DNA of 64,000 nucleotides from a virus (IMGVR_UViG_3300033463_000045:1-64000), one strand, 5' to 3'. Counted from the stretch's first letter, positions 1,483 to 64,000 are shown. Made by a program: numbers and translations. The notes: a model not told the origin generated them from the letters alone.

Positions 1483-2799
1483 ATGAATATAATTATTGAA
1501 GGACCTGATGCAACAGGTAAAACAACTTTAGCTGAAAAGCTACAAAAGAAATATGGAATGGGTTATTTACATAGCACTTCTAAAACACCTAATGATTTAA
1601 AATATCATATGGACTTATTAGATAAAGATAATATGGTATATGATAGATTTATGTGTGGTGAATTAGTATACCCAGAAATATATGGTAGAGAACCAAAAAT
1701 GAATATCGATGAAATCTTACAAGTTATGCAAAAGATTGTAGATAATAATGATATTTTAATTATTATGTATGCATCTAATTTAGATACTTTAAAAGAAAGA
1801 TTAGTTGCTAGAGGAGAAATAGATTATCTAAAAGAAATTGAACAACAAAATATTTTATTTCAAAAAGTTATTTATGTTTTAGATGCTTATGAATATAAAC
1901 ATTTCTTAGCTGTCGATGTAAGTAAAGCAGAAAATTATGATAAATTAGATAGCTATATTGATAGAGTATTTAATCAAAAAACAGTAAATATTCAATATAG
2001 ACAAGCATGTAGAGATTTATTAGAAAAAGGACATGAAGTAGAAAGTCCAAACGCATCTAGAGGTAATTCATTAGAATTAAATAATTATATGTTTACTGTA
2101 GATGACATTGAAGATAATGTTGTTACTTTAAAAACTAGAGATACTTCATTAACTTATTTAGCCGCAGAATTATTATGGTATTGGCAAAGTAGAAATGATG
2201 TTGACTTTATAGGTAAATTTGCTAAATTATGGAAAAGAATATCTGATGATGGTAAAACAAGTAATTCTGCTTATGGTTATTTATTACAAGAAAAACATGG
2301 ATTTAATCAAATAGAAACTATAATTGATTTATTACAAAAAGACCCATCATCTAGAAGAGCCGTATTAAATTTAAATGTTCCTAATCCTAATGTAGCAACT
2401 ACTAAAGATGAAATTTGCACTATTTGCTTAAATTATTTTATTAGAGATGGAAAATTACATTGTACAGGAATGATGAGAAGTAATGATATTATATTCGGTT
2501 TGACTTATGATATTACTTATTTTACTCAATTACAAAAATATATTGCTAGAAGATTAAATATTCCTACTGGAAGTTATACTCATTTTGCAACTTCAATTCA
2601 TGGTTATGATAAAGACTTTGATAAAATAAGAGATATTGCTAATGGAGATTTAACAACTATAGATAAAAGATTAGATATAGATTGGTTATTAACAGAAAAG
2701 AATATGAAAAAATTAACTGATTATGTAGATAATGAATTTGTATCTAAAGAAGATTTTACTGAACAATGTCAAACATTAGGAGTTATTAGAAGAAGATAA
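1483..2799 (+). CDS. Fusion of dNMP kinase (N-term) and thymidylate-synthase-family dCMP hydroxymethylase (T4 gp42-like)
   Basis: P-loop GPDATGKTT and DR motif at the N-terminus. C-terminal NSAYG, catalytic C in ICT, and RSNDIIFGLTYD with Asp at the position that is Asn in dUMP-specific TS. Confidence 0.85.
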   Translation: MNIIIEGPDATGKTTLAEKLQKKYGMGYLHSTSKTPNDLKYHMDLLDKDNMVYDRFMCGELVYPEIYGREPKMNIDEILQVMQKIVDNNDILIIMYASNLDTLKERLVARGEIDYLKEIEQQNILFQKVIYVLDAYEYKHFLAVDVSKAENYDKLDSYIDRVFNQKTVNIQYRQACRDLLEKGHEVESPNASRGNSLELNNYMFTVDDIEDNVVTLKTRDTSLTYLAAELLWYWQSRNDVDFIGKFAKLWKRISDDGKTSNSAYGYLLQEKHGFNQIETIIDLLQKDPSSRRAVLNLNVPNPNVATTKDEICTICLNYFIRDGKLHCTGMMRSNDIIFGLTYDITYFTQLQKYIARRLNIPTGSYTHFATSIHGYDKDFDKIRDIANGDLTTIDKRLDIDWLLTEKNMKKLTDYVDNEFVSKEDFTEQCQTLGVIRRR

Positions 2800-2800
2800 T

Positions 2801-3931
2801 ATGAAAGTAGCAGTAATTAAATTAGGAAGTAGAATAGCAATATCTTCTAGAGGAACTTCAGGAGGAACTGGAGAAGCATTATCAATTATAAAAATGTTGA
2901 CAAATGCAAAAGTTGATGTAGATGTATATACTGAAATATTATCTAAAGATGAGATTAATGATTTAGATTTTAATATTTATAATATTGAAGATACATATAA
3001 AGATATAAATAATAAAGATTATAATGCTTTAATAGTATTAAATGGAAATGTTAATTATTTTGGAGGAGTTGATTCTCCTTCTCAAACATTAAATTATTAT
3101 ATAATTAATAATTTTAAAGGAAAAATATTCTATATTTTATGTGATTGTAATTTATTATTAAAACAAGTATGGAAATCTATTGAAAATAAAGATTGGGTAA
3201 ATAATTATAAAAAAGATGATATAAATATTACTAGAAATGATATAATTTATATATCTCAACCTAGAGATATAAGCAAATTAAAAAACAAGCTCTCTAAGCT
3301 AGATATTATAATAGATGATATAATTCATTACCCATTTGAAAAGTTTCCTCTGGTGACATCAGAATACCTCCAGATTAATCCTAAATATGAATATGACATA
3401 TCATATGGCGGAACATTTAGAGGAGGTAAAAGAGAGAAAGATATGGTTAAATTTTACTTTGACTATCCAGAAGATATTAAAGTAGAAATGTTTGGAAAAA
3501 TAACGGAATCTAATTTTAATAAAGATTTAATAAAAGATTTAAGATTACCTATATTTAATAAAGCAGTTCCATATAATGAATTTAATAATAAAATGTCTAA
3601 TTCATTAGCAACAATAATAATTGGAGACCCATTATATAAGCAATTAGATGACTTAGCTCAAAGAATATATGAATCTATATTAGTAGGAAATATAGTATTT
3701 ATAGATAGTAGTTATGATTATAATAAAAGAGTATTTAAAAATGAAGAATTAATTAAATTTAATTATGTATCTAATAAAGAAGAAGTTATAGATAGAATAA
3801 GATTATTAAAAGAAAATGAAGAATTAAGAAATCATATAATAGAATTACAAAGACAAGATACTGAAATAGATATTAATAAATATTGTAATGATTTTGTTAA
3901 TATAATAAAGGAGAAAATAAATTATGAATAA
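2801..3931 (+). CDS. bgt: DNA beta-glucosyltransferase homologue (T4 BGT family)
   Basis: Collinear matches to T4 BGT: NGNVNYFGG (NSSINFFGG), YGGTFRGGKREKDMVKF (YGGSFRSGQRESKMVEF), IIIGDPLY (LIIGDKNY), RIYE, FID..D, E.IDRI.LLK. Confidence 0.88.
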   Translation: MKVAVIKLGSRIAISSRGTSGGTGEALSIIKMLTNAKVDVDVYTEILSKDEINDLDFNIYNIEDTYKDINNKDYNALIVLNGNVNYFGGVDSPSQTLNYYIINNFKGKIFYILCDCNLLLKQVWKSIENKDWVNNYKKDDINITRNDIIYISQPRDISKLKNKLSKLDIIIDDIIHYPFEKFPLVTSEYLQINPKYEYDISYGGTFRGGKREKDMVKFYFDYPEDIKVEMFGKITESNFNKDLIKDLRLPIFNKAVPYNEFNNKMSNSLATIIIGDPLYKQLDDLAQRIYESILVGNIVFIDSSYDYNKRVFKNEELIKFNYVSNKEEVIDRIRLLKENEELRNHIIELQRQDTEIDINKYCNDFVNIIKEKINYE

Positions 3932-4940
3932 AGGAAATATAACAATTTTATCAGGAGGTTCTGGTAATACAGCAATAATTAATGCAATATTACCAAATCC
4001 AGATATTAATTTACAAATAATAACAAATGCATATGATTCAGGAAAATCAACTGGAATATGCCGTAAAATAACAAATACATTAGGAGTATCAGATATTAGA
4101 AAAAATCATTTTAAAGTATATAAAAATTTACATAAAGATGATTTAGATAATAATTTAGTAGAATTTTATAAATCTAGATTAGATTTAACTAAAGGAAAAG
4201 AATTAGAAGAGGTAAAAGATTTCCTAGAAAAAAATAATTTATCTAATCTTATTAAATATGCAGAAAAATTCTTTGAAAGAGAAGAAGCAAATAAATATGA
4301 ATATAAAGATTTTAGCATAGCAAATATTATATATTCAGAGATGTATGCTGAAATTGGCTATAATATGACAAATGATTATTTTACTGATTTATTAAAAATA
4401 CCTAGCTGTGTTAAAATAAATTCATTTGATGATGCATATATAAATGCAATAACTTATAATGGTAATATTATTCCAGATGAAGGAGATATTGTTGAATATA
4501 AAAATTCTGAAGATAAAATAAAAGATATTTTATATACGAATGTTACTAAATCAAATGGTTTAAATCCAGAAGTTGTAGATATAATTAATAATTCTAATTA
4601 TATTATAATTTCTACTGGAACTTTCTGGTCTTCATTATACCCTACATTACATTATTTAGATTTTTATAAATTAATTAATAATTCTAATGCAAAGAAAATT
4701 TGGATTATTAATACTGAAGAAGATAAAGATTCTTATGGTGTAAGTAGTAATATGTTTATAGATAGATTAGAAGAATTAGGATTAGATTTATCTAACTTTA
4801 TTATAGTAGAAAATCTAGATGCAATTGATTCATTAAAAGAAAAGAATGAAAAACATAATATATTATATAAACATTTAGGAAATATAAATGGTTTAAATGA
4901 ATCAGATTTATTAAAAGAGTTATTTAGTGAAATAGAATAA
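3924..4940 (+). CDS. CofD/YvcK (UPF0052) family protein
   Basis: LSGGSG, NAYDSGKSTG..GVSDIR, GTFWSSLYP motifs typical of CofD-like/YvcK proteins. Confidence 0.75.
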   Translation: MNKGNITILSGGSGNTAIINAILPNPDINLQIITNAYDSGKSTGICRKITNTLGVSDIRKNHFKVYKNLHKDDLDNNLVEFYKSRLDLTKGKELEEVKDFLEKNNLSNLIKYAEKFFEREEANKYEYKDFSIANIIYSEMYAEIGYNMTNDYFTDLLKIPSCVKINSFDDAYINAITYNGNIIPDEGDIVEYKNSEDKIKDILYTNVTKSNGLNPEVVDIINNSNYIIISTGTFWSSLYPTLHYLDFYKLINNSNAKKIWIINTEEDKDSYGVSSNMFIDRLEELGLDLSNFIIVENLDAIDSLKEKNEKHNILYKHLGNINGLNESDLLKELFSEIE

Positions 4941-4953
4941 GAGGTAATTATAT

Positions 4954-6288
4954 ATGATTAATTTATATGATTTTGATGATACATTATGGAGTAGAAATCC
5001 AGATGAGATAGAAAAATCTATTGAAAATATTAAATTACTAAATGAATTACCTGATACTTATATTGTGTCAGGTAATTCATATCAACATATTAAAGAAAAA
5101 ATCGAGTTGGCTTTAGGAGATATAAATAATTGTAATATAAATATAATTGCGGATGCTAACACTAATTTATATAAAAATAATAAAATTATTTCAAGTATAA
5201 AAAATATGTCTATAACTAATTATGAAGAGATAATTAAAAAAATTGAAAAATTAGGTTATAAAAATAAAATGACAATATTATATAATATTAATAATGAACC
5301 TATAAATATAAAAATAAAACCTTTAGATAACGATGAAAGAGATTATTTATATTATGAATTAAATGATAATATAAATAAAGTAGTTAAAGCAGGTAAAACA
5401 ACAATTGATATATTAAATATTAATAATAACAAAATAAATATTTTTAATTCTTTTAATATAGATAGAAATAACTGCATTTATTTTGGTGATGAAATTAAAT
5501 ATGGTAATGATAAAGATATTGCATTATTATGTAAAGAATATATTGAAATAGATTCTATATATAAAATGAATAAAATATTAAATAGAGGAAAATTAATTTA
5601 TGGTTTAATAATTGCTGCCGGAAATCAAACAAGATTTAAAACAGATATTCCTAAAGCAATTATGCCTATAAATAATACAACATTATTAGATATAAATATA
5701 AAATCAATGTCAAACTATACAGATAAAATATATGTGGTTTGCTCATATAATAATAAAGATTATTTTGATAATTATAATACAATTATAATAAATTCAGGTA
5801 AAGGTTGTGGAGATGCTATTTTAAAAGCATTAGATTATTTATCTGATAATAATGATTGTTATATTAAATGGGGAGATTCATTACATTTAGACGATATTTA
5901 TAATAGAATGAATATAAATAATAAAATGGTAATTCCTGTTAGATATGAAGAAAATCCATATGTTCAAATAATAGCAAATGAAAATAATAAAATAGAGAAA
6001 ATATTATTTTCTAAATATGGAGAAAATATAACTGATGGTTATCATGATTTAAGTTTATTTTATGCAAATATTGGTTATTTAAAATATTATTTAAAAGAAT
6101 TTGCTAATAAAATATTAGATAAAGAAACAAATTCATATATTCATAAGCATAATAATGAATTACAATTCTTAGATGTTTTTAATGAAACTGAAATAGAATG
6201 CTATATTGATATATTAAATGGAATAAATGATTATTCATTTAATACGTTAGAAGAATTTAATAAGTTATTTAATGAACAAACAAAATAA
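4954..6288 (+). CDS. Fusion of HAD-IIB phosphatase/phosphomutase and NTP-sugar nucleotidyltransferase
   Basis: N-term DFDDT, SGN, GKTTIDI, FGDE..GNDKDI (PMM/Cof-like). C-term IIAAGNQTRFKTDIPKA, GCGDAI, WGD (GlmU/MobA-like). Confidence 0.78.
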   Translation: MINLYDFDDTLWSRNPDEIEKSIENIKLLNELPDTYIVSGNSYQHIKEKIELALGDINNCNINIIADANTNLYKNNKIISSIKNMSITNYEEIIKKIEKLGYKNKMTILYNINNEPINIKIKPLDNDERDYLYYELNDNINKVVKAGKTTIDILNINNNKINIFNSFNIDRNNCIYFGDEIKYGNDKDIALLCKEYIEIDSIYKMNKILNRGKLIYGLIIAAGNQTRFKTDIPKAIMPINNTTLLDINIKSMSNYTDKIYVVCSYNNKDYFDNYNTIIINSGKGCGDAILKALDYLSDNNDCYIKWGDSLHLDDIYNRMNINNKMVIPVRYEENPYVQIIANENNKIEKILFSKYGENITDGYHDLSLFYANIGYLKYYLKEFANKILDKETNSYIHKHNNELQFLDVFNETEIECYIDILNGINDYSFNTLEEFNKLFNEQTK

Positions 6289-6290
6289 AT

Positions 6291-6306
6291 TTCATAATAT
6301 ATAATA
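6291..6306 (+). promoter_or_regulatory. Phage promoter-like motif copy
   Basis: TTCATAATATATAATA followed by GAAAGGA SD. Confidence 0.7.
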
Positions 6307-6320
6307 GAAAGGAAGATAAT

Positions 6321-6791
6321 ATGAAATATTTTATTGATTTTGAAGAACTAATTTATGCAAAAACAACTGAAGTTAAAAGTCCAATAAGAGGACATGAAAA
6401 CGATGCTGGTATTGATTTCTTTGTACCAGATAATTTTGAAAAAGTTACACTACTTCCAAATGAAGATATAAAAATTGATTCTGGAATAAGAGTTATAGTT
6501 CCTAATAATTGGGCATTTATATTTAAAGAAAAATCTGGAGTAGCAACAAATAGAAAATTAACTTGCGGAGCAGCCGTAATTGATTCTGGTTATAGAGGTA
6601 ATGTTCATTTTCATCTATTTAATAATGGAACAGAACCTCAAACAATTGAAGCTGGAGATAAAATAACTCAAGCATTAATTATTCCAGTGTCATTGTGTCA
6701 ACCTAAAGAAATATCTTTAGAAGAATATGAAAAAATGTATAATGATACATCTAGAGGTTCTAAAGGATTCGGTTCAACTGGTACAAAATAA
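6321..6791 (+). CDS. dut: Trimeric dUTPase
   Basis: AGIDF, KSG, VIDSGYRG, GDKITQ, RGSKGFGSTG motifs I-V. Confidence 0.93.
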   Translation: MKYFIDFEELIYAKTTEVKSPIRGHENDAGIDFFVPDNFEKVTLLPNEDIKIDSGIRVIVPNNWAFIFKEKSGVATNRKLTCGAAVIDSGYRGNVHFHLFNNGTEPQTIEAGDKITQALIIPVSLCQPKEISLEEYEKMYNDTSRGSKGFGSTGTK

Positions 6792-11398: not shown

Positions 11399-12479
11399 TA
11401 ATAATTATAAATCTTTTGTATTTTTAGATGAATCAGAATTTTTTAAAGAAGCAAATCTATTAGATTTATATAGTAAAGCTAAAAGAGAAGATTCATTAGC
11501 TGGTATAAATAAAACTACAGGTAAAGGTAGAATCGATAGAGGAAGAGATTTAAAAAGTAAAGTTAGGTATTTTGGTTTATCAAATGATGGTACATTAAAT
11601 TTTAAAGTTGCATCAGGAACTAGAGCAGGTAAGTTCCATTATGTATTTTTAGAAACATTAATAACTGATTTTGATAAATATTATGAAGAAACTGTTATTG
11701 AAAATAGACAACATTTACAAGCAAAAGATTTAAATTTATTAATTACTAATTCAAATAATTTTAGAATAGGCTGCACTTGTGAAGATTTCTTATATTTTGC
11801 TTTTCAATATATGGCAACTCAAGGAGATTATGAAGCAAAAGATTTTGTTGAAACGAGAGCTCCAGAAAGAAATAATACAGGATTACATGGCGCTTTTTGT
11901 AAACATATAGTTGCAGTAATAGAAAATATTAGTACTAATACTAATATGAGAAATCAAATTGCTAAAGATATAGAAAACTTTATTTTATATTCTAATGATA
12001 TGGATTATGAAGAATTTCAAACACAAAATGCAGCTAATATGATTAAGCAAAGAAAACATAGTTCTAAATTTAAAAAGAAACCTAGTGATTATTGTAATGA
12101 ATATTTTGCTAGACTTGCTAAAACACATCCATTCTTAGATGATAAAGATATTAAACGTAGTTTAAAGATGGCAATGAATACTTATATTCATAATAATGAA
12201 GATGCTACTATAAATGGTTTCTTAAAAGATTTCTTTAAGATGACTATTGATGGTTTTGCAGATGAAATGAAATTACCTATTAGTGATGTTGAAGATTACT
12301 TTAATGAATTAGGATTTACTTCTAAAAGAGAAAAACAACAACAAAAAGTTAATAATATAATTAGTAATAATGCCGCTAATATAGATAATGAAATAGAAGA
12401 TATTGAAGATATAGAAACAGGACCTATTGAAGATAATAAAGCAAATATATTAAATAATAATAGAGGAGGAAATAGATAA
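11358..12479 (+). CDS. SWIM zinc-finger protein
   Basis: CTCEDF...FCKH SWIM signature. The N-terminus has LKE/LDE|S/FKE|A motifs. Confidence 0.7.
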   Translation: MIQMKTTNLLKEINNNYKSFVFLDESEFFKEANLLDLYSKAKREDSLAGINKTTGKGRIDRGRDLKSKVRYFGLSNDGTLNFKVASGTRAGKFHYVFLETLITDFDKYYEETVIENRQHLQAKDLNLLITNSNNFRIGCTCEDFLYFAFQYMATQGDYEAKDFVETRAPERNNTGLHGAFCKHIVAVIENISTNTNMRNQIAKDIENFILYSNDMDYEEFQTQNAANMIKQRKHSSKFKKKPSDYCNEYFARLAKTHPFLDDKDIKRSLKMAMNTYIHNNEDATINGFLKDFFKMTIDGFADEMKLPISDVEDYFNELGFTSKREKQQQKVNNIISNNAANIDNEIEDIEDIETGPIEDNKANILNNNRGGNR

Positions 12480-15418
12480 TGAACTTATATAGCAATATTA
12501 AGAAGAAGTTAAACGAATCTGATGACTATGAAGCCAATAGAAATGATATAATTAAGCAAGCAGCAGAATATTTATTTAATGATGTTAATGGTGATTGGGA
12601 TGAATCATTACCTGATTATGAAAAATTTACTGATTATTATATGGATTTAAATAAAAGAGATTATAATAAAGCAGTTAAATTAGCAGAGCAAGCATTAGGT
12701 AATTATGCTGAACATCATTATTATGATAGAGATTTTAATAATATCAATAAAAGTGGCGGGTTATTAGAATTAAATGATAATCATACTATGTGGGAATTAA
12801 ATAATCCAACATTAGATAATTCTGATTCAGCTTGGTATTTATATGACGATATAGTAACTCGTAAAATTAATGATTTTAAAGAAGAAACAGGAGAAGAACT
12901 ATATGGATGTGGTAGAAGTGGTAGACATATCTGTGTAGAACCAACTTTTGAAAACTGTTTAAATTTTTATAAATTACAAGAAGTTCAAGAAAGATTAGAA
13001 CAAGAAGCAATAGATGAATTTAATAATTATAGACCAGAAGAATTTAATGAATCTTCAATGTTAAAAGAAGAAGTTTGGAATGATTTTGGAGATAAAGAAT
13101 ATAAAGGAATTAAAATATCAATTGAAAAAAGTGATAAAGGAAAGACATGTTATATTCCATTACAAAACGATAAATTTAAAGTCGAACCACAAACGCAATT
13201 CTTTAATTGGAAAGATACTAAAAAATATATAGATAAAAAGTTAAATGAATCTGAAAAATTAAAAGAATCAGATACATCTGATATTACAAATAAAATAAAA
13301 AATGATGTTGGAGAAATAATAAGAAAACATTGGTCTACTATTTATAGTGATGAATGGTTCGATAAAAACGATTTAATAATTTCATTACCTGGAGATTATG
13401 ATAAACAAGAAGTTGTTATAGATTTTAAAAATAGAAAAGAACCATATTATCTTGTTAATTCTAATGAATTAAAAGAACTAAAAGAAGATTTAAAAGCTCT
13501 TGGATTAAAAGGATTACATATAAAAACTAAAATAATTAAACCTAGTTGGGAAGATAGAAAATACACAGAATTATTAAGCATAAGTTATATTTATGATGAT
13601 GAACCAAGAAAAGAAATTCATGAAGCAGAAAATAAAGATAATAAAATATATTATTTTATGGTAGGTATTTGTTTAGATAAAAATAGACCAAATGCTATTA
13701 AAGAAGATTTTGCTGATTGGCCTTGGACAAAAATACCTTATAAATTATTAGATGAAAACTGGGGTGTAGATAAAACAAAAGAAGAAGCAGTCAATTGGGT
13801 TAAAAATTATATTGCTGATGGCGTTCCTGGAACTTTTGGTATTGTTACTGAAGCAACAGAACCTTATGAAGGATTTAAAGAAGAAATTCATAATGGTAAT
13901 CATAATGACATGGATTGGTCAGATATTCAAAAAGGAAAATTAATTTATTCAGCTTATAAAGAAGATAAAAATCCAGAATCTATAAAAGTTATTGTTGATG
14001 AATCTCAAAAATTAGATGAATCTGAAGAAAAAGTAGTAACTAATTTAGATACTAATAATATGGTAGATGAATTAAGAAAACATTTTAAAAATATAACTAA
14101 TAAAAATTATATAAAAAATTCATTAAAAATGCATTTAAATAAAGGTTTTATAACTAAAGAAGAATATAATAAATTAAAAGAAGAATATAAATTAAATGAA
14201 TCTGAAAGTAATTATCAAAATGGAGAATTTATAGAACCAAAATGGTTTAAAGATAAAACATTATATAATGAATTTAAGAAATTTGTAGATTCACAATTAA
14301 GTGATGGTGCAATAGATGACCCTGATTATGTTAATACATTATCTCCAGAAGAATATGAAAGTTTATTAGTAAATACTTGGATGAAAGACCAAGAAGAAAT
14401 AGATATGTTTGAAGAACATATTAAAAGTGGTTATTATGGAGAAAAAGCAAAATCTTTAGTAGAATCTGATACAGAATCAGATATTATAGATGATGTTAAA
14501 ATGCCAAATGACCCTAATTTAGCTATTGGTGATAAGATTTGGGTTATAACTTATAATAACAAAAAACCAAAACTCCACATAGCAGAAGTTGTTAGTATGG
14601 CTGAAAATGGAAGATTTATTGGTTATCATTATTATTATGGTTGGAGTTCTTTATGTACAACTAATCATGGTTTTATGGCAGACCTATATAAAGCAGTAGA
14701 TAATAGAGATTTATCTAAAGATTATTTACATGAATCTGAAACAGAAGATTATTGGGATGCTACTGAATTAGATAGAGTAGGATTTATGGCTTTATTAAAA
14801 TTTAATAATCCAGAAGAACATTTAAATCCATCAATGCAATATATAATTACTAATGATAATAATGAAGTTTATAGATTTGCAATGCAAGGTGAAAATGAAA
14901 AGAATAAAGATATAGGAGCTAAAATAGAATTTAGAAAATATATTAATAAAGAAGAATCTGAAAAATTAAAAGAAGCAGTTGAATTATCTTATGATGATTA
15001 TTATGATTTTGGAAATGAAGATAATGAAGATGAATTATTCTGTGCTCAATGTGGTAATCCAGTAAAACCAGATTTCTGTTATGTTGTTGATGAATCAGAC
15101 CCACATTCAGAAGTTTATTGCTGGAGATGTTATGAAGATTTAAATGAATCTCAAAAATTAAATGAGTCAATTAGTTATGCTTCAGAAAAAGAAATTAAAG
15201 ATATGACAGATGAAGAATTAGAAGATTATTTAAAATACTTAAAAGATGAAATGATTTATCACACAACAAAGAAAAAAGCAGAAATTGAAAAAGAAATTGA
15301 AAAAATCACAAAAATATTATATGATAGAGACTATTATATTGATTATAGTAATCCGGATGTTAATACAATAAAATTTGATAAAGACGGTAATGAAATAACT
15401 ACAAAAGAAGACAAATAA
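12479..15418 (+). CDS. Putative virion-internal polyprotein: leader plus about 10 modules separated by LxE|S linkers
   Basis: Leader MNLYSNIKKKLNES. Internal FNESSMLKEE, LNESEKLKES, IHEA, VDESQKLDES, LNES, LVES, LHES, EESEKLKEA, LNESQKLNES. Confidence 0.7.
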   Translation: MNLYSNIKKKLNESDDYEANRNDIIKQAAEYLFNDVNGDWDESLPDYEKFTDYYMDLNKRDYNKAVKLAEQALGNYAEHHYYDRDFNNINKSGGLLELNDNHTMWELNNPTLDNSDSAWYLYDDIVTRKINDFKEETGEELYGCGRSGRHICVEPTFENCLNFYKLQEVQERLEQEAIDEFNNYRPEEFNESSMLKEEVWNDFGDKEYKGIKISIEKSDKGKTCYIPLQNDKFKVEPQTQFFNWKDTKKYIDKKLNESEKLKESDTSDITNKIKNDVGEIIRKHWSTIYSDEWFDKNDLIISLPGDYDKQEVVIDFKNRKEPYYLVNSNELKELKEDLKALGLKGLHIKTKIIKPSWEDRKYTELLSISYIYDDEPRKEIHEAENKDNKIYYFMVGICLDKNRPNAIKEDFADWPWTKIPYKLLDENWGVDKTKEEAVNWVKNYIADGVPGTFGIVTEATEPYEGFKEEIHNGNHNDMDWSDIQKGKLIYSAYKEDKNPESIKVIVDESQKLDESEEKVVTNLDTNNMVDELRKHFKNITNKNYIKNSLKMHLNKGFITKEEYNKLKEEYKLNESESNYQNGEFIEPKWFKDKTLYNEFKKFVDSQLSDGAIDDPDYVNTLSPEEYESLLVNTWMKDQEEIDMFEEHIKSGYYGEKAKSLVESDTESDIIDDVKMPNDPNLAIGDKIWVITYNNKKPKLHIAEVVSMAENGRFIGYHYYYGWSSLCTTNHGFMADLYKAVDNRDLSKDYLHESETEDYWDATELDRVGFMALLKFNNPEEHLNPSMQYIITNDNNEVYRFAMQGENEKNKDIGAKIEFRKYINKEESEKLKEAVELSYDDYYDFGNEDNEDELFCAQCGNPVKPDFCYVVDESDPHSEVYCWRCYEDLNESQKLNESISYASEKEIKDMTDEELEDYLKYLKDEMIYHTTKKKAEIEKEIEKITKILYDRDYYIDYSNPDVNTIKFDKDGNEITTKEDK

Positions 15419-15480
15419 GAAACATTCTAAATAAAGATAATAAAATATATTAGAAATATAAAAAGTGTCTCAGATGACTT

Positions 15481-15512
15481 AAAAATAGCTAATAATTAAA
15501 TTAGCTATTTTT
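15481..15512 (+). terminator. Intrinsic terminator
   Basis: AAAAATAGCTAAT-AATTAA-ATTAGCTATTTTT. Confidence 0.75.
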
Positions 15513-15659
15513 ATTATTATTTAATAGTTTTTTTCATTATAATTAGAAGCTAAATTATACAGTAAAAATACCAATTTCTACAAATAATATTCCAAAAGTT
15601 AGTCTATTTTTATTGTATATAGATTAACTTCAGATATTTAGATGTAGAAGGAGATATTT

Positions 15660-16744: not shown

Positions 16745-19700
16745 ATGGCAATTTTAAATAATGATGATATTAAAATTGATAATACTCCTAATCATGATGG
16801 TAGAAGAAGTCTTTCAAAACAAGTTTCAGATATTACTGATGCTAGAAAAGAAATTTTAAAGCAAAATTCTATATTAAATGATAGAGTTAGAGATTTCAAT
16901 GATAATAAAAAATCTTTAGATGCATCAATGCAAACTTTTAATAATCAATTAGATACACTAACTAAAAGTTTAGACAAGATGGATAAAGATAGTGCAAAAG
17001 CAATAAGAGCATTATTATCTAGTATTGGTTTAACTGAAAAAAGTATGGACAAGATGTCTCAAACATATAAAGAGAATAGTGAAGCTCTTAAAAAGATGTC
17101 TAATGACCATACAGCTACTGGAAAACAATTATTAGAAACTTTAGATTCATTAGATGAAGTTACTAATAATATAGGCGATATTAGTGAAATACTTGAAGAA
17201 ATAATAAACAATAATTATAAATTAAATAAACAGCAAAAAGAAACCATTAAAGAATCTGCGGCTATATATAAAGCATATCAACAAGAATTAAAAGATGCAC
17301 AAGAAGCAAAAAGAAATACTTATATAGATAAAGAAAAAGTAGCAAATGAAAATCTATCAACTGCTGTTAAAGAAGAAATAGGAAAACTTGGTGATAATTT
17401 ACACCAAATGATTGATACATTAAATGTATATAAACTTGCTGACAAAGTTGCTGTTTCTGCTAAACAACAATTACAAGGTGAATTACAAACAAATTATAAT
17501 TTATCTGGTAATGAATTTGAATCATTTAAAAGAGGTCTATATAAACAAATAGATACTTCAATATATACTAATAAAGAAGTATTTGATGCAATGCAAACAT
17601 TAAATACTACTGCATTAGGAAATACTCAAACAGCTACTAAATATTTTAATGATATTATAAGAGGACAAAAAGTCCTTGGAATGACTAGTGAAACTCAACA
17701 ACAATTATTAAAATTAGGAAATATAACAGGAAGAAATGAATTAGCATTTTATCAAGGTACTGTTGCTAAATTCTTAAATTCTAATTTAGGTTTAAATAAA
17801 CAACAATTAAATGAATTAGTACAAATGAATGCTACATTAGCAATGCAAGCAGCAGATTTAGGAATTGCTTCAGAAGCATTTGAAAGAGCAAATTTGGAAT
17901 CTCAAGCGGCATTAGAAAGAACAGAAAAGGGAGCAGGTTCTAGATTAGTTAATGCGGAATCATTCTTATTGGCAAATACTAGTGCCACTGCAAGTTTACT
18001 TGGTATGGATTCAGGTGAATTATCTAGAAGATTAAATAATGGAGAACATATTACAGATATATTAAGAAACTCAAATGGCGCTGCAAAAGAAGTAATGAAT
18101 GCATTTAGAACTGGTGATACTGAATATATTACTAGAATGAGAGAACATGCTTCATCTGCATGGGGTGCTGATAATGATGCAATATGGTCTACATTAAGAA
18201 TATTAGCAACTCAAGAAGAAGAGTTTAATCAAAATTATTTAACAGCTACTCAATCTCAAACGCAAGATTTAGAAAATGCATTAAACGCAGTAACAGAAAA
18301 AGAAACTGAATCATTAACCTGGTTTCAAAAAGCACTTAATAAAGCAACTAATTTCTTTGATGGAGCAATTCCATGGGCATTTGGAGCACAATTAACTTCT
18401 ATTATAGTTGGAATATCTACTATAATATCACTAATGAAAATAAATAATAATTTATTAGAAATAGGAAGAGGTTTAAGTGGCGGAAAAGGAGCAAAACTAT
18501 TATCTACTAAAGGACTTGCTAGTAAAATAGGAGGTCTTACTATTGGTAATGCTACTGGCAGTGCAGCTTTAGGCGGAGCTTTAGGAGTTATTGGTGGAAC
18601 TGTTATGGGAATTTCTGATGCAATATCAATGCAAGGTTCTACTGGATATGGCGTTTTAGCAGATGTTGGAAGAGGCTTATTCTTTGGAACAGGTTCTAAA
18701 GAACAAACAAATGACCAAAAATTAAAATCAATTGGTAGTAATACACTTAAATATGCCGCATTTGGCGCTGGCATAGGAACATTCTTTGGACCGGGTGTTG
18801 GTACCGCTATTGGTGGTGGAATTGGTGCATTAGTTGGTTTAACAACAGGTTTAATTGGTATAAATAAAGAAAATAAAAAATTACAAGAAGAACAAAATAA
18901 TAAGTTAGCTGAAGTAGAAAAAAATACAGCAACAACAGCAAATAATACTGCAAGAGATAATGTAGGAATAGTTTATAGATATAGAGGAACAGATAATTAT
19001 TCAAGTGCTTCTGGTAGTGGAGCAATAGGTTCTATTGGAGGAAGTTATCATGGATATGTTTCTAAAGGTCCTATTGGAGCTATGACAGATGCTGGAAAAC
19101 CTATTACATCATATTGGGGACAAAAAAGAACTTATAAAGCAGAAGATGGCAAATGGTATACAGATATTCATAATGGAGCAGATTTTGGTGTTCCTGAAGG
19201 AACAAAATTATATAGTAATGCTGATGGTTATGTATCTATGAATTTTACAGAAAAATCGGGTGCTAATATTGTAGGTATTACAGATAAAGCAGGATATACT
19301 CATTTATATGCTCATATGCAATCAAGGTCTCCATTAAAAATTGGAACTGAAGTACATAAAGGAGATTTTGTTGGTTATTCAGGTAAAACTGGTAGAGTAA
19401 CAGGAGCGCATTTACATTATACAGTATTAAAACCTGGACAAGAAGCAAGAAATAATTATTGGGTATTAGGTAATACTATAGACCCTGCTCCATTCGTATC
19501 GTCTAGTATATTTAATGGAGATGCTTCAACAGTTATTTCTTCAGCAAATAAAGCATCAACAAATTCTAATGTATCTGATATATTAGGAAGAAATTCTGCT
19601 ATTCTAAGTTTAGAAAGTCTTGGAAGTATTTCTGGTCCAGTAGTTAATAGTATTACAGATTTAAAACAAACAATTATAGATTTAAGTGCTAAAACAGATA

Positions 19701-19759
19701 GAAATGAAAAAATACTTAATATGCTAACTAATAAAATGCCAGAAAGTCCAATAGCATAA
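16745..19759 (+). CDS. Tape measure protein with C-terminal M23 peptidase
   Basis: Long helical N-terminus, Gly-rich hydrophobic segments, M23 motifs HNGADF, YAHM, HLH. Confidence 0.88.
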   Translation: MAILNNDDIKIDNTPNHDGRRSLSKQVSDITDARKEILKQNSILNDRVRDFNDNKKSLDASMQTFNNQLDTLTKSLDKMDKDSAKAIRALLSSIGLTEKSMDKMSQTYKENSEALKKMSNDHTATGKQLLETLDSLDEVTNNIGDISEILEEIINNNYKLNKQQKETIKESAAIYKAYQQELKDAQEAKRNTYIDKEKVANENLSTAVKEEIGKLGDNLHQMIDTLNVYKLADKVAVSAKQQLQGELQTNYNLSGNEFESFKRGLYKQIDTSIYTNKEVFDAMQTLNTTALGNTQTATKYFNDIIRGQKVLGMTSETQQQLLKLGNITGRNELAFYQGTVAKFLNSNLGLNKQQLNELVQMNATLAMQAADLGIASEAFERANLESQAALERTEKGAGSRLVNAESFLLANTSATASLLGMDSGELSRRLNNGEHITDILRNSNGAAKEVMNAFRTGDTEYITRMREHASSAWGADNDAIWSTLRILATQEEEFNQNYLTATQSQTQDLENALNAVTEKETESLTWFQKALNKATNFFDGAIPWAFGAQLTSIIVGISTIISLMKINNNLLEIGRGLSGGKGAKLLSTKGLASKIGGLTIGNATGSAALGGALGVIGGTVMGISDAISMQGSTGYGVLADVGRGLFFGTGSKEQTNDQKLKSIGSNTLKYAAFGAGIGTFFGPGVGTAIGGGIGALVGLTTGLIGINKENKKLQEEQNNKLAEVEKNTATTANNTARDNVGIVYRYRGTDNYSSASGSGAIGSIGGSYHGYVSKGPIGAMTDAGKPITSYWGQKRTYKAEDGKWYTDIHNGADFGVPEGTKLYSNADGYVSMNFTEKSGANIVGITDKAGYTHLYAHMQSRSPLKIGTEVHKGDFVGYSGKTGRVTGAHLHYTVLKPGQEARNNYWVLGNTIDPAPFVSSSIFNGDASTVISSANKASTNSNVSDILGRNSAILSLESLGSISGPVVNSITDLKQTIIDLSAKTDRNEKILNMLTNKMPESPIA

Positions 19760-30606: not shown

Positions 30607-32466
30607 GTGGCAATATTTAATAGAAAAAGTAAAATTAATTTAAATGAATCTCAGAAATTAAATGAAGCAACAAAAGAATTACAATTAGATATGACTTCAA
30701 TGTTTAATCTTCCTTATTATAGTTCTATTCAAAGATTACAAGGTGTAAATAATTCATTTACAATAAATAGTGCTGTTAAGCAATCTATGTTAAAAGACCC
30801 AGTTATTTCAAGAGTTATTAATATGTGGATTTCTGATACATTACAAAAAGATGTATTAACTAAAAATATTTATACTGTAGATATTACTAAAGCAGATGGT
30901 TTATTTGATAATGCTGAAAAAGTATCCGATGAAGAAATTAATGAACTTAATGAATGTATTAAATATTTAAGAAATAACTCAAATATAGATGAAGAATTAA
31001 CTTCTATATTATATCAAGTAATAGTTAATGGTTCTTGTACTGTTAGACTTGGTTTTGTAGATGGCTTTGAGGATACCAAGATAAAATTATTTGAGGGTGA
31101 AAAAGGAAATAAAAGTAAATTCTTAAAAGAAACAGAAAATTTAGATAAAGAAGACTTTAAAAAATTATTAGAAGCTCCTAATTATGATGATTATTTAGAT
31201 GATGAAAATGCTGATAAAAAGAATAAAAAGATTAAAAGATTATCTGGTAGATATTATATTGAAGTTCTACCAAAAAGAATAGTTCCATTAGTTTATAAAG
31301 GAATTACAATCTTATATTTAGATTTAGATAATACAAGAAAAGTATTAAATCCTAAAAATATATCTTCATTTATTAATAAAAAAGGTAATAATAAAACTAT
31401 TTCTATTAAAAATGAAGAAGATGATATATTAAGTGATATTTATACACTAGAATTAGGTGAATCATTTATAGATAATGCTGTTACTCCTTGGTCTATGTTA
31501 AATAGTGTAGAAGATTGCACTATGCTAGCATTAATGACAAGAAGTGCTATTTATAGATTATTTACTATTGAAGTAGGAGCAATGAGTACTAAAGAAACAG
31601 AAAAATTCTTACAAGAATTTAAAAATAGATTAACAACAAGAGAAACTATAAATGTTAGAGAAAAATATTATAGTTCAGCAGAAACTCAATTACCATTAGG
31701 TGATAGTATAGTAATACCTTTAAGAAATGGCATTGGTAATGTTAATTTACAAACAGTAGGAAATGATTTAAAGATAGATACTGATGGACCACTTAAATAT
31801 TTTAGACAACAATTATTAACTGCTTTAGGAGTTCCTGAAGGATTGATATATGGTGATACTGGTAATGGCGGTTTAATTAATACATCAGCAACTAAACAAG
31901 ATATAAGATATTTAAGAACTATTCAACAATTTACTTATATTATGGAAAAAGGTTTAGAGTCTATTTATAAAGATTATTTAAAGATGATTGGTGTAAATCT
32001 AAGTAAATTAGTTATAGATGTTAATTTTGCTCAAATTAATTCTGAACAAGACCAAGAAAGAATTGAATATGAACAAACTAAACAAGAAGCATTAGATAGA
32101 GCAATTACTTCATTAAATAATTTAGGTATTTCATTTGATGAAGGTGGCTATACTGAAACAAGAGAATTATTAATTAAGAGATACTTAGACCAAGAAATCT
32201 TAGATGCTATTAAAAATGATGAAGAAAATATGGATACCGGAAAATCTGATGATTCTAATGGTGAAGGTAAAGACCACGAATCATTACCTAGTGGAAGTTT
32301 AGCTTATTCTGGTGGAGGACCTAATATAGATATTAATATGGGAGAAGAAGAACCAACTGAAGAAGGTCCTGAAGAAAATACTGGAGAAGAAAATACTACT
32401 GAAGATGAACCTATAGATTTAGATAGTCTTGGTAATGAGCCTCCTGAAGCTAATGAAGAATTATAA
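30607..32466 (+). CDS. Portal protein (T4 gp20-like)
   Basis: ED..L.R..RLFTIEVGAM, LKYFRQQLLTALGVP, QDIRY.RTI, acidic tail. N-terminal LNESQKLNEA. Confidence 0.82.
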   Translation: MAIFNRKSKINLNESQKLNEATKELQLDMTSMFNLPYYSSIQRLQGVNNSFTINSAVKQSMLKDPVISRVINMWISDTLQKDVLTKNIYTVDITKADGLFDNAEKVSDEEINELNECIKYLRNNSNIDEELTSILYQVIVNGSCTVRLGFVDGFEDTKIKLFEGEKGNKSKFLKETENLDKEDFKKLLEAPNYDDYLDDENADKKNKKIKRLSGRYYIEVLPKRIVPLVYKGITILYLDLDNTRKVLNPKNISSFINKKGNNKTISIKNEEDDILSDIYTLELGESFIDNAVTPWSMLNSVEDCTMLALMTRSAIYRLFTIEVGAMSTKETEKFLQEFKNRLTTRETINVREKYYSSAETQLPLGDSIVIPLRNGIGNVNLQTVGNDLKIDTDGPLKYFRQQLLTALGVPEGLIYGDTGNGGLINTSATKQDIRYLRTIQQFTYIMEKGLESIYKDYLKMIGVNLSKLVIDVNFAQINSEQDQERIEYEQTKQEALDRAITSLNNLGISFDEGGYTETRELLIKRYLDQEILDAIKNDEENMDTGKSDDSNGEGKDHESLPSGSLAYSGGGPNIDINMGEEEPTEEGPEENTGEENTTEDEPIDLDSLGNEPPEANEEL

Positions 32467-62170: not shown

Positions 62171-62395
62171 ATGAATTTATATAGTAATATTAAAAATAAT
62201 ATTAATAGTGCAGATTCTAAGTATATGAAAGAATGGACAGAAATATGTGAAGCATTTTGTAAGAAGATAAATGCTGAACTATTATTTGTTAATCTTGATA
62301 ACTTTGGTTATATGACTAAAGATGGTCAAACTATTCATATGTATGCTGATGAGCTTGCAGAATATCTAAATAATAAAAATAAGAATAATCAGTAA
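62171..62395 (+). CDS. MNLY-leader family small protein
   Basis: MNLYSNIKNNIN leader. Confidence 0.65.
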   Translation: MNLYSNIKNNINSADSKYMKEWTEICEAFCKKINAELLFVNLDNFGYMTKDGQTIHMYADELAEYLNNKNKNNQ

Positions 62396-62418
62396 ACAAT
62401 TTACTGATTATTTTCTTT
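62384..62418 (+). terminator. Hairpin / terminator
   Basis: AATAATCAGTAAA-CAA-TTTACTGATTATT-TTCTTT. Confidence 0.55.
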
Positions 62419-62437
62419 ATATAAGAGGAGATTATTT

Positions 62438-62683
62438 ATGAACTTATATGAAAGTATTGAAAAAAATTTAAAAGAATCAGAAAAATCTTTGGAAGACAAA
62501 TGTAAAGAAATATTTAATAAATATAGAGATGAATTTGATACTATAAATGATGTAAGAGATATTGCAGATTATTTAAATAAATTATATTCAGAAGAAGGAA
62601 TACAAGCTGTAAATGATTGGTTCCTATCGAGTGCAACTGAAGAATACAAAAAAGATTTAAAATCTTTAATAAATAAAAAGTAG
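62438..62683 (+). CDS. MNLY-leader family small protein
   Basis: MNLYESIEKNLKE|SE leader. Confidence 0.7.
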   Translation: MNLYESIEKNLKESEKSLEDKCKEIFNKYRDEFDTINDVRDIADYLNKLYSEEGIQAVNDWFLSSATEEYKKDLKSLINKK

Positions 62684-62697
62684 AAAGGAAAATAGAT

Positions 62698-62967
62698 ATG
62701 AACTTATATGAAAGTATTGAAAAAAATTTAAAAGAATCAGAACATTCTGATGATTATTGTACAATAGCTGCTACAGAATTTGTTGTTGATAGATTACCAA
62801 GTGATTGGAAAAATTTATCTAATGACGAATTAAAAGAATTAGTAAGAGAAGAAGTAAATAATTATAATAATGCTAATGTCGAACCTGAATATGAAAATGA
62901 AGATTTTTATGGTGATGAAGCAGATTATAATAAAGTATTTGATTATATAATATATAGTTATAAATAG
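62698..62967 (+). CDS. MNLY-leader family small acidic protein
   Basis: First 45 nt are identical to those of the 62438 gene. Confidence 0.7.
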   Translation: MNLYESIEKNLKESEHSDDYCTIAATEFVVDRLPSDWKNLSNDELKELVREEVNNYNNANVEPEYENEDFYGDEADYNKVFDYIIYSYK

Positions 62968-62981
62968 AAAGGAAGATTAAA

Positions 62982-63752
62982 ATGAATTTATATGAAAGTA
63001 TTAAAAATAATTTAGATAAAGATTCAGATACAGAATTAGAAATTTTAGATACTCAAATAGATTTTCCTGCCGTGTTTGATTCATTTGATACAAGCGGCAT
63101 TATTGATATAATAAAAGACACTGATTCAAAAGATTTAAGTGCGTGTATTGCAGGAGGAACAAGAAGTTCTCGCGAACAAAATGCATATAATTTATATATA
63201 GATAAATGCATTTTATGTGGCAAAGTAGGTTATAATAATTTTATCCCAGTGCATAAAAATAAATATAAAGATTATAGTTATTGGTCGTATGAAGACAATT
63301 ATGGATGGCCTTTTTCTAATGTTCATTTTCCATCTGAAAAAGTAGCCAAAATAATAGTTAAAATACCTCATAAACAACGCAAAAAAATTTATATAAGAGC
63401 AAGAATATGTTTTTGCAAAGATTGTTATGAGAAAAATGTCGTACCATTTGTGCTTAAAAAAGCAGATGAAATTAAAAAAATTGTCGCTTATTATAGAGAT
63501 AATAATAAATATCCAAGTAAAGGCGAGGTTATAATTTTTGGTAAGGATATATTAGATATAATTAATGACGGGATAATTAATGCTAGTCATTATAATAAAC
63601 ATGAAAAAAATAAAATAATCGATAGATTATATCAAATTGTTGATTTAGAAACACCTTATAATGATGTTGATAAGATTTATGAAAGATTTCTCAAATATTT
63701 TATTTCATCGGGTAACGCTGATGACTCAATTAAATTTAATCCAAAGAAATAG
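62982..63752 (+). CDS. MNLY-leader family protein with CxxC...CxxC
   Basis: MNLYESIKNNL leader; CILC, CFCKDC; atypical codons. Confidence 0.7.
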   Translation: MNLYESIKNNLDKDSDTELEILDTQIDFPAVFDSFDTSGIIDIIKDTDSKDLSACIAGGTRSSREQNAYNLYIDKCILCGKVGYNNFIPVHKNKYKDYSYWSYEDNYGWPFSNVHFPSEKVAKIIVKIPHKQRKKIYIRARICFCKDCYEKNVVPFVLKKADEIKKIVAYYRDNNKYPSKGEVIIFGKDILDIINDGIINASHYNKHEKNKIIDRLYQIVDLETPYNDVDKIYERFLKYFISSGNADDSIKFNPKK

Positions 63753-63766
63753 AAAGGAAGATTAAA

Positions 63767-64000
63767 ATGAATTTATATAGTAATATTAAAAATAATTTAA
63801 ATGAATCTGCAAAATTCTATTATAAAGAATTTAGTGGCGCTGGTGAAATTGATTATGTTGAATTTGAGACAGAACAAGAAGCAAATGATTATGCTAAAAA
63901 AGTTAATGAAGAATCTGGTAATGAAACAGCAGTATATAGAATAGATAATGATGAATGCATTGCTTTATATGACGCATTAAATGAATCTGAAAAGTTAAAA
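63767..64000 (+). CDS. MNLY-leader family protein, probable second polyprotein (3'-truncated; not in ORF track)
   Basis: MNLYSNIKNNLNE|SAKFYY...ALNE|SEKLK runs off the window end. Confidence 0.75.
   Translation, partial: MNLYSNIKNNLNESAKFYYKEFSGAGEIDYVEFETEQEANDYAKKVNEESGNETAVYRIDNDECIALYDALNESEKLK

Follow-up and report, generated by a model that had tools for sequence, protein, structure and literature searches.

The nearest known kinds to the protein analysed here are the internal proteins of phage T4, capsid-targeting sequences and the "polyvalent proteins" of mobile elements. T4 internal proteins are diverse and alike only in their capsid-targeting sequence (PMC3012670, PMC9026906), by way of which large fusions, for example with beta-galactosidase, can enter T4 (PMC9026906). 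The T4 ADP-ribosyltransferase Alt is a large enzyme that is packaged in the head and, after gp21 has trimmed both of its ends, passes into the host by ejection (PMC9026906). T4 gp22, gp67 and gp68 are prohead core proteins whose pieces are mostly expelled before DNA packaging. In polyvalent proteins the defining feature is a set of recognisable domains, enzymatic or antirestriction, often with an embedded self-processing peptidase (Iyer et al. 2017, PMC5512222).

Here we describe P0001, encoded in a 64,000-nt stretch (the window) of the 112-kb genome (25% G+C) of an uncultured T4-like phage. We propose with moderate confidence that it is a head-targeted multi-cargo precursor. Like T4 IPI, IPII and IPIII, P0001 has a short N-terminal propeptide that is common to unrelated proteins and ends in a hydrophobic-x-Glu site for a gp21-type protease, and its locus, like the T4 internal-protein genes, is hypervariable between related phages (PMC3012670, PMC9026906). 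The phage also shares with T4 the gp20-, gp21- and gp23-type head genes and a T4-like glucosyltransferase. However, whereas T4 has one cargo per gene, P0001 would place about ten cargos behind one leader, with internal cut sites between them; T4 internal proteins are basic (PMC9026906) but most P0001 modules are acidic, and there is no sequence similarity between the two. Single-cargo forms, as in T4, occur among the relatives of P0001, namely P0045 (leader plus module 1) and P0092 (135 aa, leader plus module 4 alone). Alt is one enzyme that is trimmed at its ends alone, whereas several proteins would be released internally from P0001.

P0001 resembles polyvalent proteins in joining many unrelated domains in one mobile-element polypeptide with predicted host entry along with the DNA (PMC5512222), and both are combinatorial in domain content, with ten dissimilar modules in P0001 and 37 cassette families among 13 homologues at its locus. 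Unlike polyvalent proteins, it combines a targeting leader with regularly spaced sites for a separately encoded protease, and none of the polyvalent hallmark domains (MPTase or other peptidase, ArdC-N, DarA, YodL, methylases) scores above the Pfam threshold in P0001. In the giant phages phiKZ, 201phi2-1 and SPN3US a gp21-related protease cuts many head proteins, among them multiply cleaved inner-body and ejection proteins, after the Glu of a short motif, and both redundant sites in the propeptides and paralogues with identical N-termini recur in the P0001 system; the giant-phage motif, however, is Ala/Ser/Gly-x-Glu instead of hydrophobic-x-Glu, and processing mainly strips long propeptides off single mature proteins (PMC5694885, PMC9026906). 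A string of unrelated, exchangeable modules was not found described in this giant-phage literature (PMC5694885, PMC9026906), nor did we find a description of a leader-led multi-cargo precursor that is cut in trans by a prohead protease.

The locus has a conserved position between tail genes, the gene being flanked by wedge/tail proteins and a gp51-like hub protein also in relatives. In polyproteins of eukaryotic RNA viruses, a viral protease cuts at short, conserved motifs between domains, so that several functional proteins arise from one product. These polyproteins serve genome expression and usually contain their protease, whereas the proposal for P0001 is joint capsid loading and a separate head-maturation protease. 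MuF-domain polymorphic toxins of temperate phages and the Dar system of P1 are variable effectors that ride in the head attached to a head-targeting part and are delivered at infection (in part, PMC12810830). The 13-residue leader and the regular protease-linker array of P0001 have no known counterpart in MuF or Dar, and neither a MuF nor a DarA family was matched in P0001 by Pfam. MuF toxins and Dar are targeted via a folded domain or partner proteins, and MuF proteins carry one C-terminal effector.

Dense cleavage-type motifs in P0001

The reading frame is open over 979 aa, as the earlier note had claimed (Table 1). Its start codon shares nucleotides with the stop codon of the preceding tail gene (TAATG), to which it is translationally coupled, and the gene is located in the baseplate/tail cluster, away from the head genes. 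Profile searches with P0001 returned no Pfam or PHROG family above threshold.

Table 1. Features of the P0001 gene, in window coordinates (a slash marks a proposed cut)
Feature	Residues	Position	Strand	Remark
Ribosome-binding site GAGGAGGA		12463..12470	+	8 nt 5' of ATG; read directly
Whole ORF (P0001)	979 aa	12479..15418	+	candidate capsid-targeted cargo polyprotein
Leader	1-13	12479..12517	+	ends L-N-E/S; candidate capsid-targeting propeptide
Module 1	14-191	12518..13051	+	21 kDa, acidic
Module 2	192-257	13052..13249	+	7.9 kDa, basic
Double linker, 6-residue spacer	258-263	13250..13267	+	part of 25-nt repeat family D1
Module 3	264-382	13268..13624	+	14 kDa
Module 4	383-508	13625..14002	+	14.6 kDa; one internal motif match, aa 456-459
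Double linker spacer	509-514	14003..14020	+	low-confidence 506-523, before confident domain
Module 5	515-574	14021..14200	+	7.3 kDa, basic, helical
Module 6	575-662	14201..14464	+	10.4 kDa
Module 7	663-752	14465..14734	+	10.4 kDa, modelled as beta strands
Module 8	753-832	14735..14974	+	9.6 kDa
Module 9	833-890	14975..15148	+	6.9 kDa, zinc-ribbon-like; internal match aa 870-873
Double linker spacer	891-896	15149..15166	+	motif count and 25-nt repeats
Module 10	897-979	15167..15415	+	10 kDa, helical; conserved C-terminal module
AT-rich 14-bp hairpin, then U-run		15480..15513	+	likely intrinsic terminator

P0001 contains 15 matches to [LIVMF]-x-E-[SA], with the P1 Glu at residues 13, 191, 257, 263, 382, 458, 508, 514, 574, 662, 752, 832, 872, 890 and 896. 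All linkers that the earlier note had listed were recovered at the residues it gave; the EE/S cut proposed there at 826/827 lacks a hydrophobic P3 residue. The matches at P1 residues 458 and 872 fall within modules 4 and 9, not at junctions. Seven of the 15 matches are of the K-L-x-E-[SA] type, and four double linkers, E[SA]-x-K-L-x-E[SA], are present. In composition-preserving shuffles of P0001 (n = 20,000), the means for these three patterns were 2.3, 0.08 and 0.001, compared with 15, 7 and 4 observed, and not one shuffle reached the observed value for any of them. The motif density amounts to 1.53 per 100 aa, as opposed to 0.43 across all 141 ORFs of the genome. The motif is several-fold denser than in the non-virion proteome, so that the refuting condition of equal density named in the earlier note does not apply: the observed/expected ratio is 6.5 for P0001, 2.7 for other leader-bearing proteins and 1.3-1.5 for the remaining proteome.

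Among the 13 locus homologues, residues following [LIVMF]-x-E are 4.9-fold (Ser) and 2.0-fold (Ala) above background, and in distant relatives (30-50% identity) the boundary retains hydrophobic-x-E-small amid diverged surroundings. Some junctions have a non-canonical P1' residue (L-H-E/F in P0002, K-L-N-E/E in the P0012-37 family), and modules 5 and 2 are without canonical bounding sites in the latter family. At the DNA level, each of the four double linkers is a 25-nt direct repeat (family D1), with 80-92% identity among them. The motif statistics, together with the T4 analogy, suggest that the protease is specific for hydrophobic-x-Glu followed by Ser or Ala.

A common leader and T4-type head genes

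The leader is common to 13 otherwise unrelated genes, which make up about 13% of the coding capacity of the phage. It starts with M-[NS]-L-Y and in most cases reaches L-x-E/S at residue 13, matching the T4 pattern of diverse proteins with a common capsid-targeting sequence (PMC3012670, PMC9026906). Two of the leader genes immediately precede the protease gene and another immediately precedes the capsid gene, and the same leader opens the locus homologues P0002-P0009. In the P0001 model, residues 2-10 of the leader form a short helix, and confidence is low over residues 11-14.

A prohead protease, which the earlier note had assumed to lie beyond the window, is indeed present: a T4 gp21-type (S77) enzyme is encoded at genome position 82360-83178. 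It matches phrog_207 (head maturation protease, E 5.8e-41) and PF03420 (Peptidase S77/U9, 44.5 bits with a cut-off of 27, E 1.6e-11), the PF03420 match being confined to model positions 56-155 of 198; no solved relative turned up in a PDB sequence search. The protease itself has two motif sites just past its catalytic part. Furthermore, the genome encodes a gp20-type (T4-type) portal and a gp23-type capsid protein with M-N-E/S at residue 63, close to the length of the T4 gp23 propeptide, which has 65 residues (PMC9026906).

Cassette shuffling and autonomy of the modules

The same locus is found in three relatives (L006, L007 and L008), with most flanking proteins 82-93% identical and one small neighbour 61-66% identical. 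As anticipated, relatives carry the same leader at this locus but other module content and order, and most module boundaries are exactly on sites. Some homologues have a GNAT domain (P0011) or, in precomputed matches to PF14191/PF14190, YodL-type domains. The modules of P0001 are also unrelated to each other, as had been claimed, with no pair at E<0.01. Family and fold searches tied the modules to no known family or fold, effector and anti-defence families included.

Several modules recur as blocks next to sites. Module 3 has an 84% identical block in P0004 (aa 380-486), directly after the site at 379, and module 4 a 91% identical one in P0003 (aa 244-368). Blocks that are 89-98% identical to module 7 occur in P0002, P0003 and P0004, each directly after a site, and in P0002 the order is swapped, module 6 being placed after module 7. 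Module 6 also occupies the middle of P0057 and P0189, proteins of 283-291 aa, with M-N-E/S on both sides in P0189 and an N-side site only in P0057. Homologous blocks of module 2 are found elsewhere in the chain in P0012-P0037 and P0041-43, and the P0012-P0037 family also has a block homologous to module 5. Module 9 follows an L-N-E/A site in the leader-bearing P0093 (157 aa). The zinc finger proposed for module 9 is there as a CxxC...CxxC arrangement, but Pfam matches are only sub-threshold (DZR, 15.3 bits).

Nearly all locus homologues retain modules 8 and 10. Module 8 is kept in all 13; a site is no more than 6 aa from the N-terminal boundary of the module in 11 of 11 homologues, and E752 and S753, the cut site itself, are among the invariant columns of its alignment. 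P0002-P0009 end in a block that is 48-60% identical to module 10. Since a fixed structural or assembly role fits such conservation better than freely exchangeable cargo, these two modules may serve in assembly.

One continuous fold, which would have spoken against separate modules, did not emerge: the full-length model has a pTM of 0.39, and confidence dips at the linkers between confident domains. In the models, modules 1, 5 and 10, and partly module 6, fold independently. Support for independent folding is confined to these because most modules, including module 2 with its low-confidence AF2 model, were modelled with low confidence. Modelled alone (AF2), module 1 reaches a pLDDT of 91.4 and a pTM of 0.85; pLDDT is 92-96 over aa 531-570 in module 5 and 89-95 over aa 901-950 in module 10.

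Module 1 represents a widespread, unnamed family with an invariant G-R-x-x-R-H core (alignment A1), and most of the 296 representative matches of P0001 fall on it. Standalone homologues, as expected for an autonomous module, were found: it occurs without a leader as P0155, in a small-gene array with ArdA, and other leaderless genes likewise sit in small-gene arrays. It is also embedded in many other long proteins, where it is mostly motif-bounded, among them long proteins of jumbo phages that likewise encode S77. In embedded domains, a site marks the N boundary in 26 of 36 cases, compared with 19% under the null, and 48 of 51 have one between positions -7 and +10 relative to their C end. Boundary-site results for modules 4, 7, 8, 9 and 10 were similar.

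A putative multi-cargo precursor and its alternatives

To account for these observations, we propose that P0001 is translated late, coupled to tail genes, and that its leader, acting like a T4 capsid-targeting sequence, would draw the entire 115-kDa chain into the prohead scaffolding core. Its size should be no obstacle, because T4 can package large fusions to a capsid-targeting sequence. Once active in the prohead, the S77 protease would cut after Glu at the motif sites, thereby taking off the leader and severing the flexible linkers, and about ten unrelated proteins of 7-21 kDa would end up free amid the packaged DNA. Double linkers would provide redundancy, with the 6-residue spacers released. 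At infection the freed proteins would exit with the DNA and be active in the host immediately, their most plausible task being host take-over or counter-defence. The short conserved linkers, being 25-nt DNA repeats as well, would allow cassettes to be swapped by recombination, and close relatives would therefore carry different cargo sets. What the computation shows is the enrichment of the motif, the common leader, the protease gene, the shuffling of cassettes with boundaries at sites and the autonomy of modules; cleavage, packaging, ejection and anti-defence function are inferred. Every prediction of the earlier interpretation that computation can address came out favourably and lends it support.

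Other explanations have to be weighed against this. It is extremely improbable that the motifs are an artefact of a Glu-, Lys-, Leu- and Ser-rich, AT-biased protein: Glu (11.8%), Lys (11.3%) and Leu (6.9%) are indeed abundant in P0001, but the shuffle test rules out chance, and the sites coincide with homology-block boundaries. An unlikely scenario is an uncleaved polyvalent protein, i.e. a single multidomain chain in which the linker serves as flexible joint and recombination microhomology, not as a protease site. The 80-92% DNA identity of the double linkers and recombinant junctions such as L-H-E/F would fit, and phages commonly encode polyvalent proteins of 2-15 domains, some of them, e.g. 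N4 virion RNA polymerase, being packaged unprocessed (PMC5512222). On the other hand, a mere spacer or DNA-level signal does not predict the specific enrichment of Ser and Ala at P1', nor was hydrophobic-x-E-small lost at boundaries where the surroundings differ. Moreover, the same amino-acid pattern stands at the end of the leader in 13 genes and at the boundary of the capsid propeptide, and the genome encodes a matching protease.

Alternatively, P0001 could be a disposable, prohead core or scaffold-like filler that is cut, with its pieces mostly expelled before packaging and without function in the next host. We consider this distinctly unlikely. Dense protease-type sites, some of them doubled, are known from propeptides built for clearance (PMC9026906, PMC5694885), and the conservation of modules 8 and 10, the overall acidic composition and the lack of a recognised effector family would agree with it; however, the pieces would be folded, domain-sized units of 7-21 kDa and not short peptides. 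The leaderless genes in small-gene arrays, one with ArdA, argue for a function of module 1 outside head assembly, and a cargo that varies between phages with about 90% identical structural genes is what one sees in conflict genes but not in scaffolds. A tail- or baseplate-associated role, for example as internal tail or ejection protein with a motif unrelated to the head protease, is very unlikely, even though translational coupling and the conserved place of the gene point to the tail. P0001 has no similarity to any tail family, its leader is also found on genes beside the protease and capsid genes, and its variable cassettes set it apart from structural tail parts. A neighbouring 1004-aa M23-peptidase protein already fills the tape-measure role; it receives the tape-measure-type profile matches, and the gene order around it is the same as in Listeria phage LIS04. 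P0001 itself was rejected as a tail tape measure, as it has no tape-measure matches and its model mixes helix and strand in separate modules.

If P0001 is indeed a multi-cargo precursor, the T4 rule, in which each internal protein has its own leader, would be extended to one leader with many cargos, and a double-stranded DNA phage would use a polyprotein strategy for virion loading instead of gene expression. This would single out a large set of proteins acting in the first moments of infection, as 13 relatives contain at least 37 cassette families at this locus alone and related multi-module proteins number in the hundreds, and would offer a direct route to mining metagenomes for counter-defence or host take-over proteins. 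Only tentatively do we extend this to the notion that phages with gp21-type proteases evolved a general plug-and-play cargo system, in which any small protein flanked by hydrophobic-x-Glu/Ser linkers and preceded by a leader of roughly 13 residues is packaged, released inside the head and injected. Shuffling polyproteins of many uncultured T4-like and jumbo phages, those with leader variants (M-K-S-I-T type) included, would then encode whole arsenals of early effectors not known so far, many likely counter-defence proteins. One construct built on the leader and linker rules could also load several foreign proteins into T4-type capsids. Module 1 deserves attention for its own sake because it is widespread and folds confidently, with no Pfam family, PDB-sequence or fold match.

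Finally, the hairpin 3' of the P0001 gene has a predicted free energy of -13.6 kcal/mol (z-score -5.1), a stability equalled in none of 200 shuffles. A consensus terminator scan missed it because the scan demands at least three G-C pairs. The hairpin likely closes the operon.

Proposed cut sites and the modules between them

Every linker listed in the earlier note was found in P0001, the candidate capsid-targeted cargo polyprotein. The protein contains 15 copies of the proposed cut site [LIVMF]-x-E/[SA] (the slash marks the cut), compared with 2.3 expected from composition. Seven of the 15 have the form K-L-x-E/[SA] (0.08 expected), and four double linkers, E[SA]-x-K-L-x-E[SA], were observed where 0.001 would be expected; none of 20,000 shuffles matched these counts. 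With an observed-to-expected ratio of 6.5 in P0001 and of 1.3-1.5 in proteins without the leader, the possibility that such motifs are no denser here than in enzymes can be set aside. Two site matches (aa 458 and 872) fall within modules. The ten modules, numbered from the amino terminus, are mutually dissimilar, as had been claimed, with masses of 7-21 kDa and a mostly acidic character. On the DNA level, the four double linkers constitute a 25-nt direct-repeat family of 80-92% identity, which may also serve recombination, as microhomology for cassette exchange.

None of the P0001 modules can be given a function. Scanned against Pfam and PHROG, the whole protein had zinc-ribbon matches only, all sub-threshold, and neither it nor module 1 matched anything among GenBank phages or PLSDB plasmids by tblastn. 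For module 1, nothing meaningful emerged from a Pfam scan of 50 relatives or a profile search of PDB sequences. Modelled alone, this module is predicted confidently (pLDDT 91.4, pTM 0.85); the model had no Foldseek match in the PDB at E<=0.001, its best E in a BFVD fold search was 0.2, and its best score in VIA-align wide (Z 6.2) lay inside the stated noise. T4 Arn was rejected as a fold match, being within noise as well (Z 6.0, rmsd 5.2), and the ESM Atlas offered no usable lead for modules 8 and 1. The full-length AF2 model (pLDDT 58.6, pTM 0.39) is confident for modules 1, 5 and 10 only, with dips at the linkers adjoining them (aa 11-14, from 193, 506-523 and 574-584). Since real alignment depth exists for module 1 only, low confidence outside this module is uninformative; the global MAFFT alignment of mosaic homologues misplaces non-collinear modules and is shallow outside module 1.

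Coordinates of the polyprotein gene, its repeats and related features
Feature	Coordinates	Remarks
Operon with T4-type beta-glucosyltransferase gene	window 1483-6791	
P0001 gene	window 12479-15418 (+)	open; 979 aa
Module 1	window 12518-13051	
Double-linker repeats	window 13245-13269, 13998-14022, 14952-14976, 15144-15168	
M23-peptidase, tape-measure-like protein	window 16745-19759	1004 aa
T4-type portal	window 30607-32466	double linker N-L-N-E/S-Q-K-L-N-E/A at residues 12-21
Six consecutive leader genes	genome 62171-68306 (window 62171-64000 and past it)	74, 81, 89, 256, 289, 1217 aa
Second polyprotein	genome 64653-68306 (L001:653-4306), just beyond window end	1217 aa; leader and 11 sites
Four site-rich genes	genome 77342-81709 (L001:13342-17709)	two with leader
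Fifth gene	genome 81712-82347	
Predicted S77 prohead protease	genome 82360-83178	PF03420 44.5 bits; phrog_207 E 6e-41
gp23-type capsid protein	genome 105890-107275	M-N-E/S at residue 63
P0045 gene and its neighbour	L023:109-3020 (another metagenome)	

Cassette exchange and the module 1 family

Relatives of P0001 numbered 43 in a word-indexed search and 296 in an exhaustive one. The 13-residue leader is common to eight long proteins, P0002-P0009. The genes for P0002 and P0003, for which both loci were fetched, occupy the same slot as the P0001 gene, and most tail genes on either side share 82-93% identity with those of the window (61-66% for one small neighbour). P0002 and P0003 come from samples SRR14517592 and SRR13180943. 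A search for relatives with other module order or content, proposed in the earlier note, was successful: P0002 comprises modules 1, 7, 6, 8 and 10 plus others, P0003 modules 4, 7, 8 and 10, and P0004 modules 3, 7, 8 and 10. Altogether, 13 proteins at the locus contain 37 cassette families, 21 of which are singletons. Most homology blocks start at the residue right after a site, Ser is 4.9-fold enriched following [LIVMF]-x-E, and both residues of the cut site ahead of module 8, E752 and S753, are invariant among the locus homologues. Judged from the junction sequences, the rule that modules end at sites is not universal, the exceptions being K-L-N-E/E between modules 5 and 2 in the P0012-37 family and L-H-E/F in P0002. 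Modules 8 and 10, both conserved, could have an assembly role.

Module 1 belongs to a family of ~170-aa domains in which, according to alignment A1, G-R-x-x-R-H is an invariant core and H-T-x-W a conserved stretch. The family is widespread in phages, its carriers ranging from fragments of 15 kb to genomes of 467 kb. The standalone homologues that were to be looked for do exist: the module occurs leaderless, e.g. as P0155 in a small-gene array that includes an ArdA gene. It also occurs as leader plus module 1 only (P0045) and inside long proteins at varied positions. Of the embedded copies, 26 out of 36 have a site at their N boundary (null, 19%), and 48 out of 51 have one close to the C end. 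Module 4 is found in leader-plus-single-cargo form in P0092, and module 9 comes after an L-N-E/A site in P0093. The P0045 gene is directly followed by that of a 783-aa leader-bearing protein, so single-cargo and multi-cargo genes sit side by side; the contexts of the P0045 and P0168 genes are short contigs. Among IMG/VR phages of 181-413 kb, those whose leader-bearing or multi-module proteins contain module 1 encode an S77 protease, a co-occurrence that is consistent with the cargo idea but not discriminating, because S77 is common in phages of this size.

Leader genes and head machinery

Thirteen genes, spread over the genome and together encoding ~4,500 aa, open with an M-[NS]-L-Y leader. 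The protease gene is immediately preceded by two of them and the capsid gene by one. Their bodies (74-1217 aa) are unrelated. In T4 internal proteins, too, the capsid-targeting sequence is the only common part (PMC3012670, PMC9026906). A site lies within the first 25 residues in 64 of 116 relatives of at least 350 aa, compared with 17 of 128 non-leader ORFs of this genome. Different, analogous leaders of the M-K-S-I-T...L-L-E/S and M-R-L-[IL]-K... types are present in long multi-module relatives (P0010, P0011, P0039, P0049-51, P0073 and others); P0011 has a GNAT acetyltransferase module. The second polyprotein matched no Pfam family at E<=0.01.

The prohead protease, presumed earlier to be encoded outside the window, was located there as a predicted S77 (T4 gp21-type) gene, whose product had no phmmer match among PDB sequences. 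Two sites follow the catalytic part of the protease itself, and the linker in the portal suggests that the N-terminus of this protein is trimmed by the prohead protease. The propeptide removed from T4 gp23 comprises 65 residues (PMC9026906). The four site-rich genes upstream of the protease gene, from which a fifth gene separates them, lack Pfam or PHROG head annotation; they may encode scaffold or core proteins.

Proposed reading, alternatives and gene setting

The best-supported model, which we consider reasonably probable, is that P0001 is a capsid-targeted multi-cargo precursor. Targeted to the capsid as a single chain, it would be cut by the prohead protease into about ten proteins, which would be delivered together with the phage DNA. 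An uncleaved polyvalent protein, in which the linkers are recombination joints, is unlikely. That P0001 is disposable core filler seems a little less likely still. A tail protein is improbable: although the gene lies among tail genes, its leader recurs next to the protease and capsid genes. Chance as the source of the motif pattern can practically be dismissed in view of the shuffles.

The nearest known kinds are the T4 capsid-targeting system, polyvalent proteins (PMC5512222) and multiply cleaved giant-phage head proteins (PMC5694885). As full-text literature searches did not find the leader-led multi-cargo arrangement described, and known kinds are near, we regard P0001 as a novel form of an already known kind.

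The viral contig of 112,265 bp (the window being its first 64 kb) has direct terminal repeats according to the IMG/VR record and an estimated completeness of 80% (CheckV). Its G+C content is 25%, and 140 of its 141 ORFs share the same strand. Among cultured phages, Listeria LIS04, Bacillus HSE3 and SP-15, and Streptococcus GXN1 come closest, with capsid-protein identities of only 23-30%; on sequence grounds the lineage is deep and uncultured, and its host is probably in Bacillota. The tail gene upstream ends in a stop codon that overlaps the P0001 ATG, and a GAGGAGGA ribosome-binding site precedes this ATG. Downstream, a consensus terminator scan made no call; a hairpin that is stable, AT-rich and accompanied by a U-run was spotted by eye and then folded computationally. 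Because of this coupled start and the hairpin, the gene appears to be the last of a late, structural operon.

The operon near the window start encodes a kinase/thymidylate-synthase-family fusion, a CofD-family protein, a nucleotidyltransferase, a dUTPase and a T4-type beta-glucosyltransferase (phrog_7922, E 8e-54). The phage DNA is probably hypermodified, and type IV restriction would then be a relevant threat, as for T4 IPI. The tape-measure-like protein is just 49% identical to its counterpart at L006, a relative's locus, whereas its neighbours reach 88-90%; by this divergence it is a second fast-evolving gene of the tail module.
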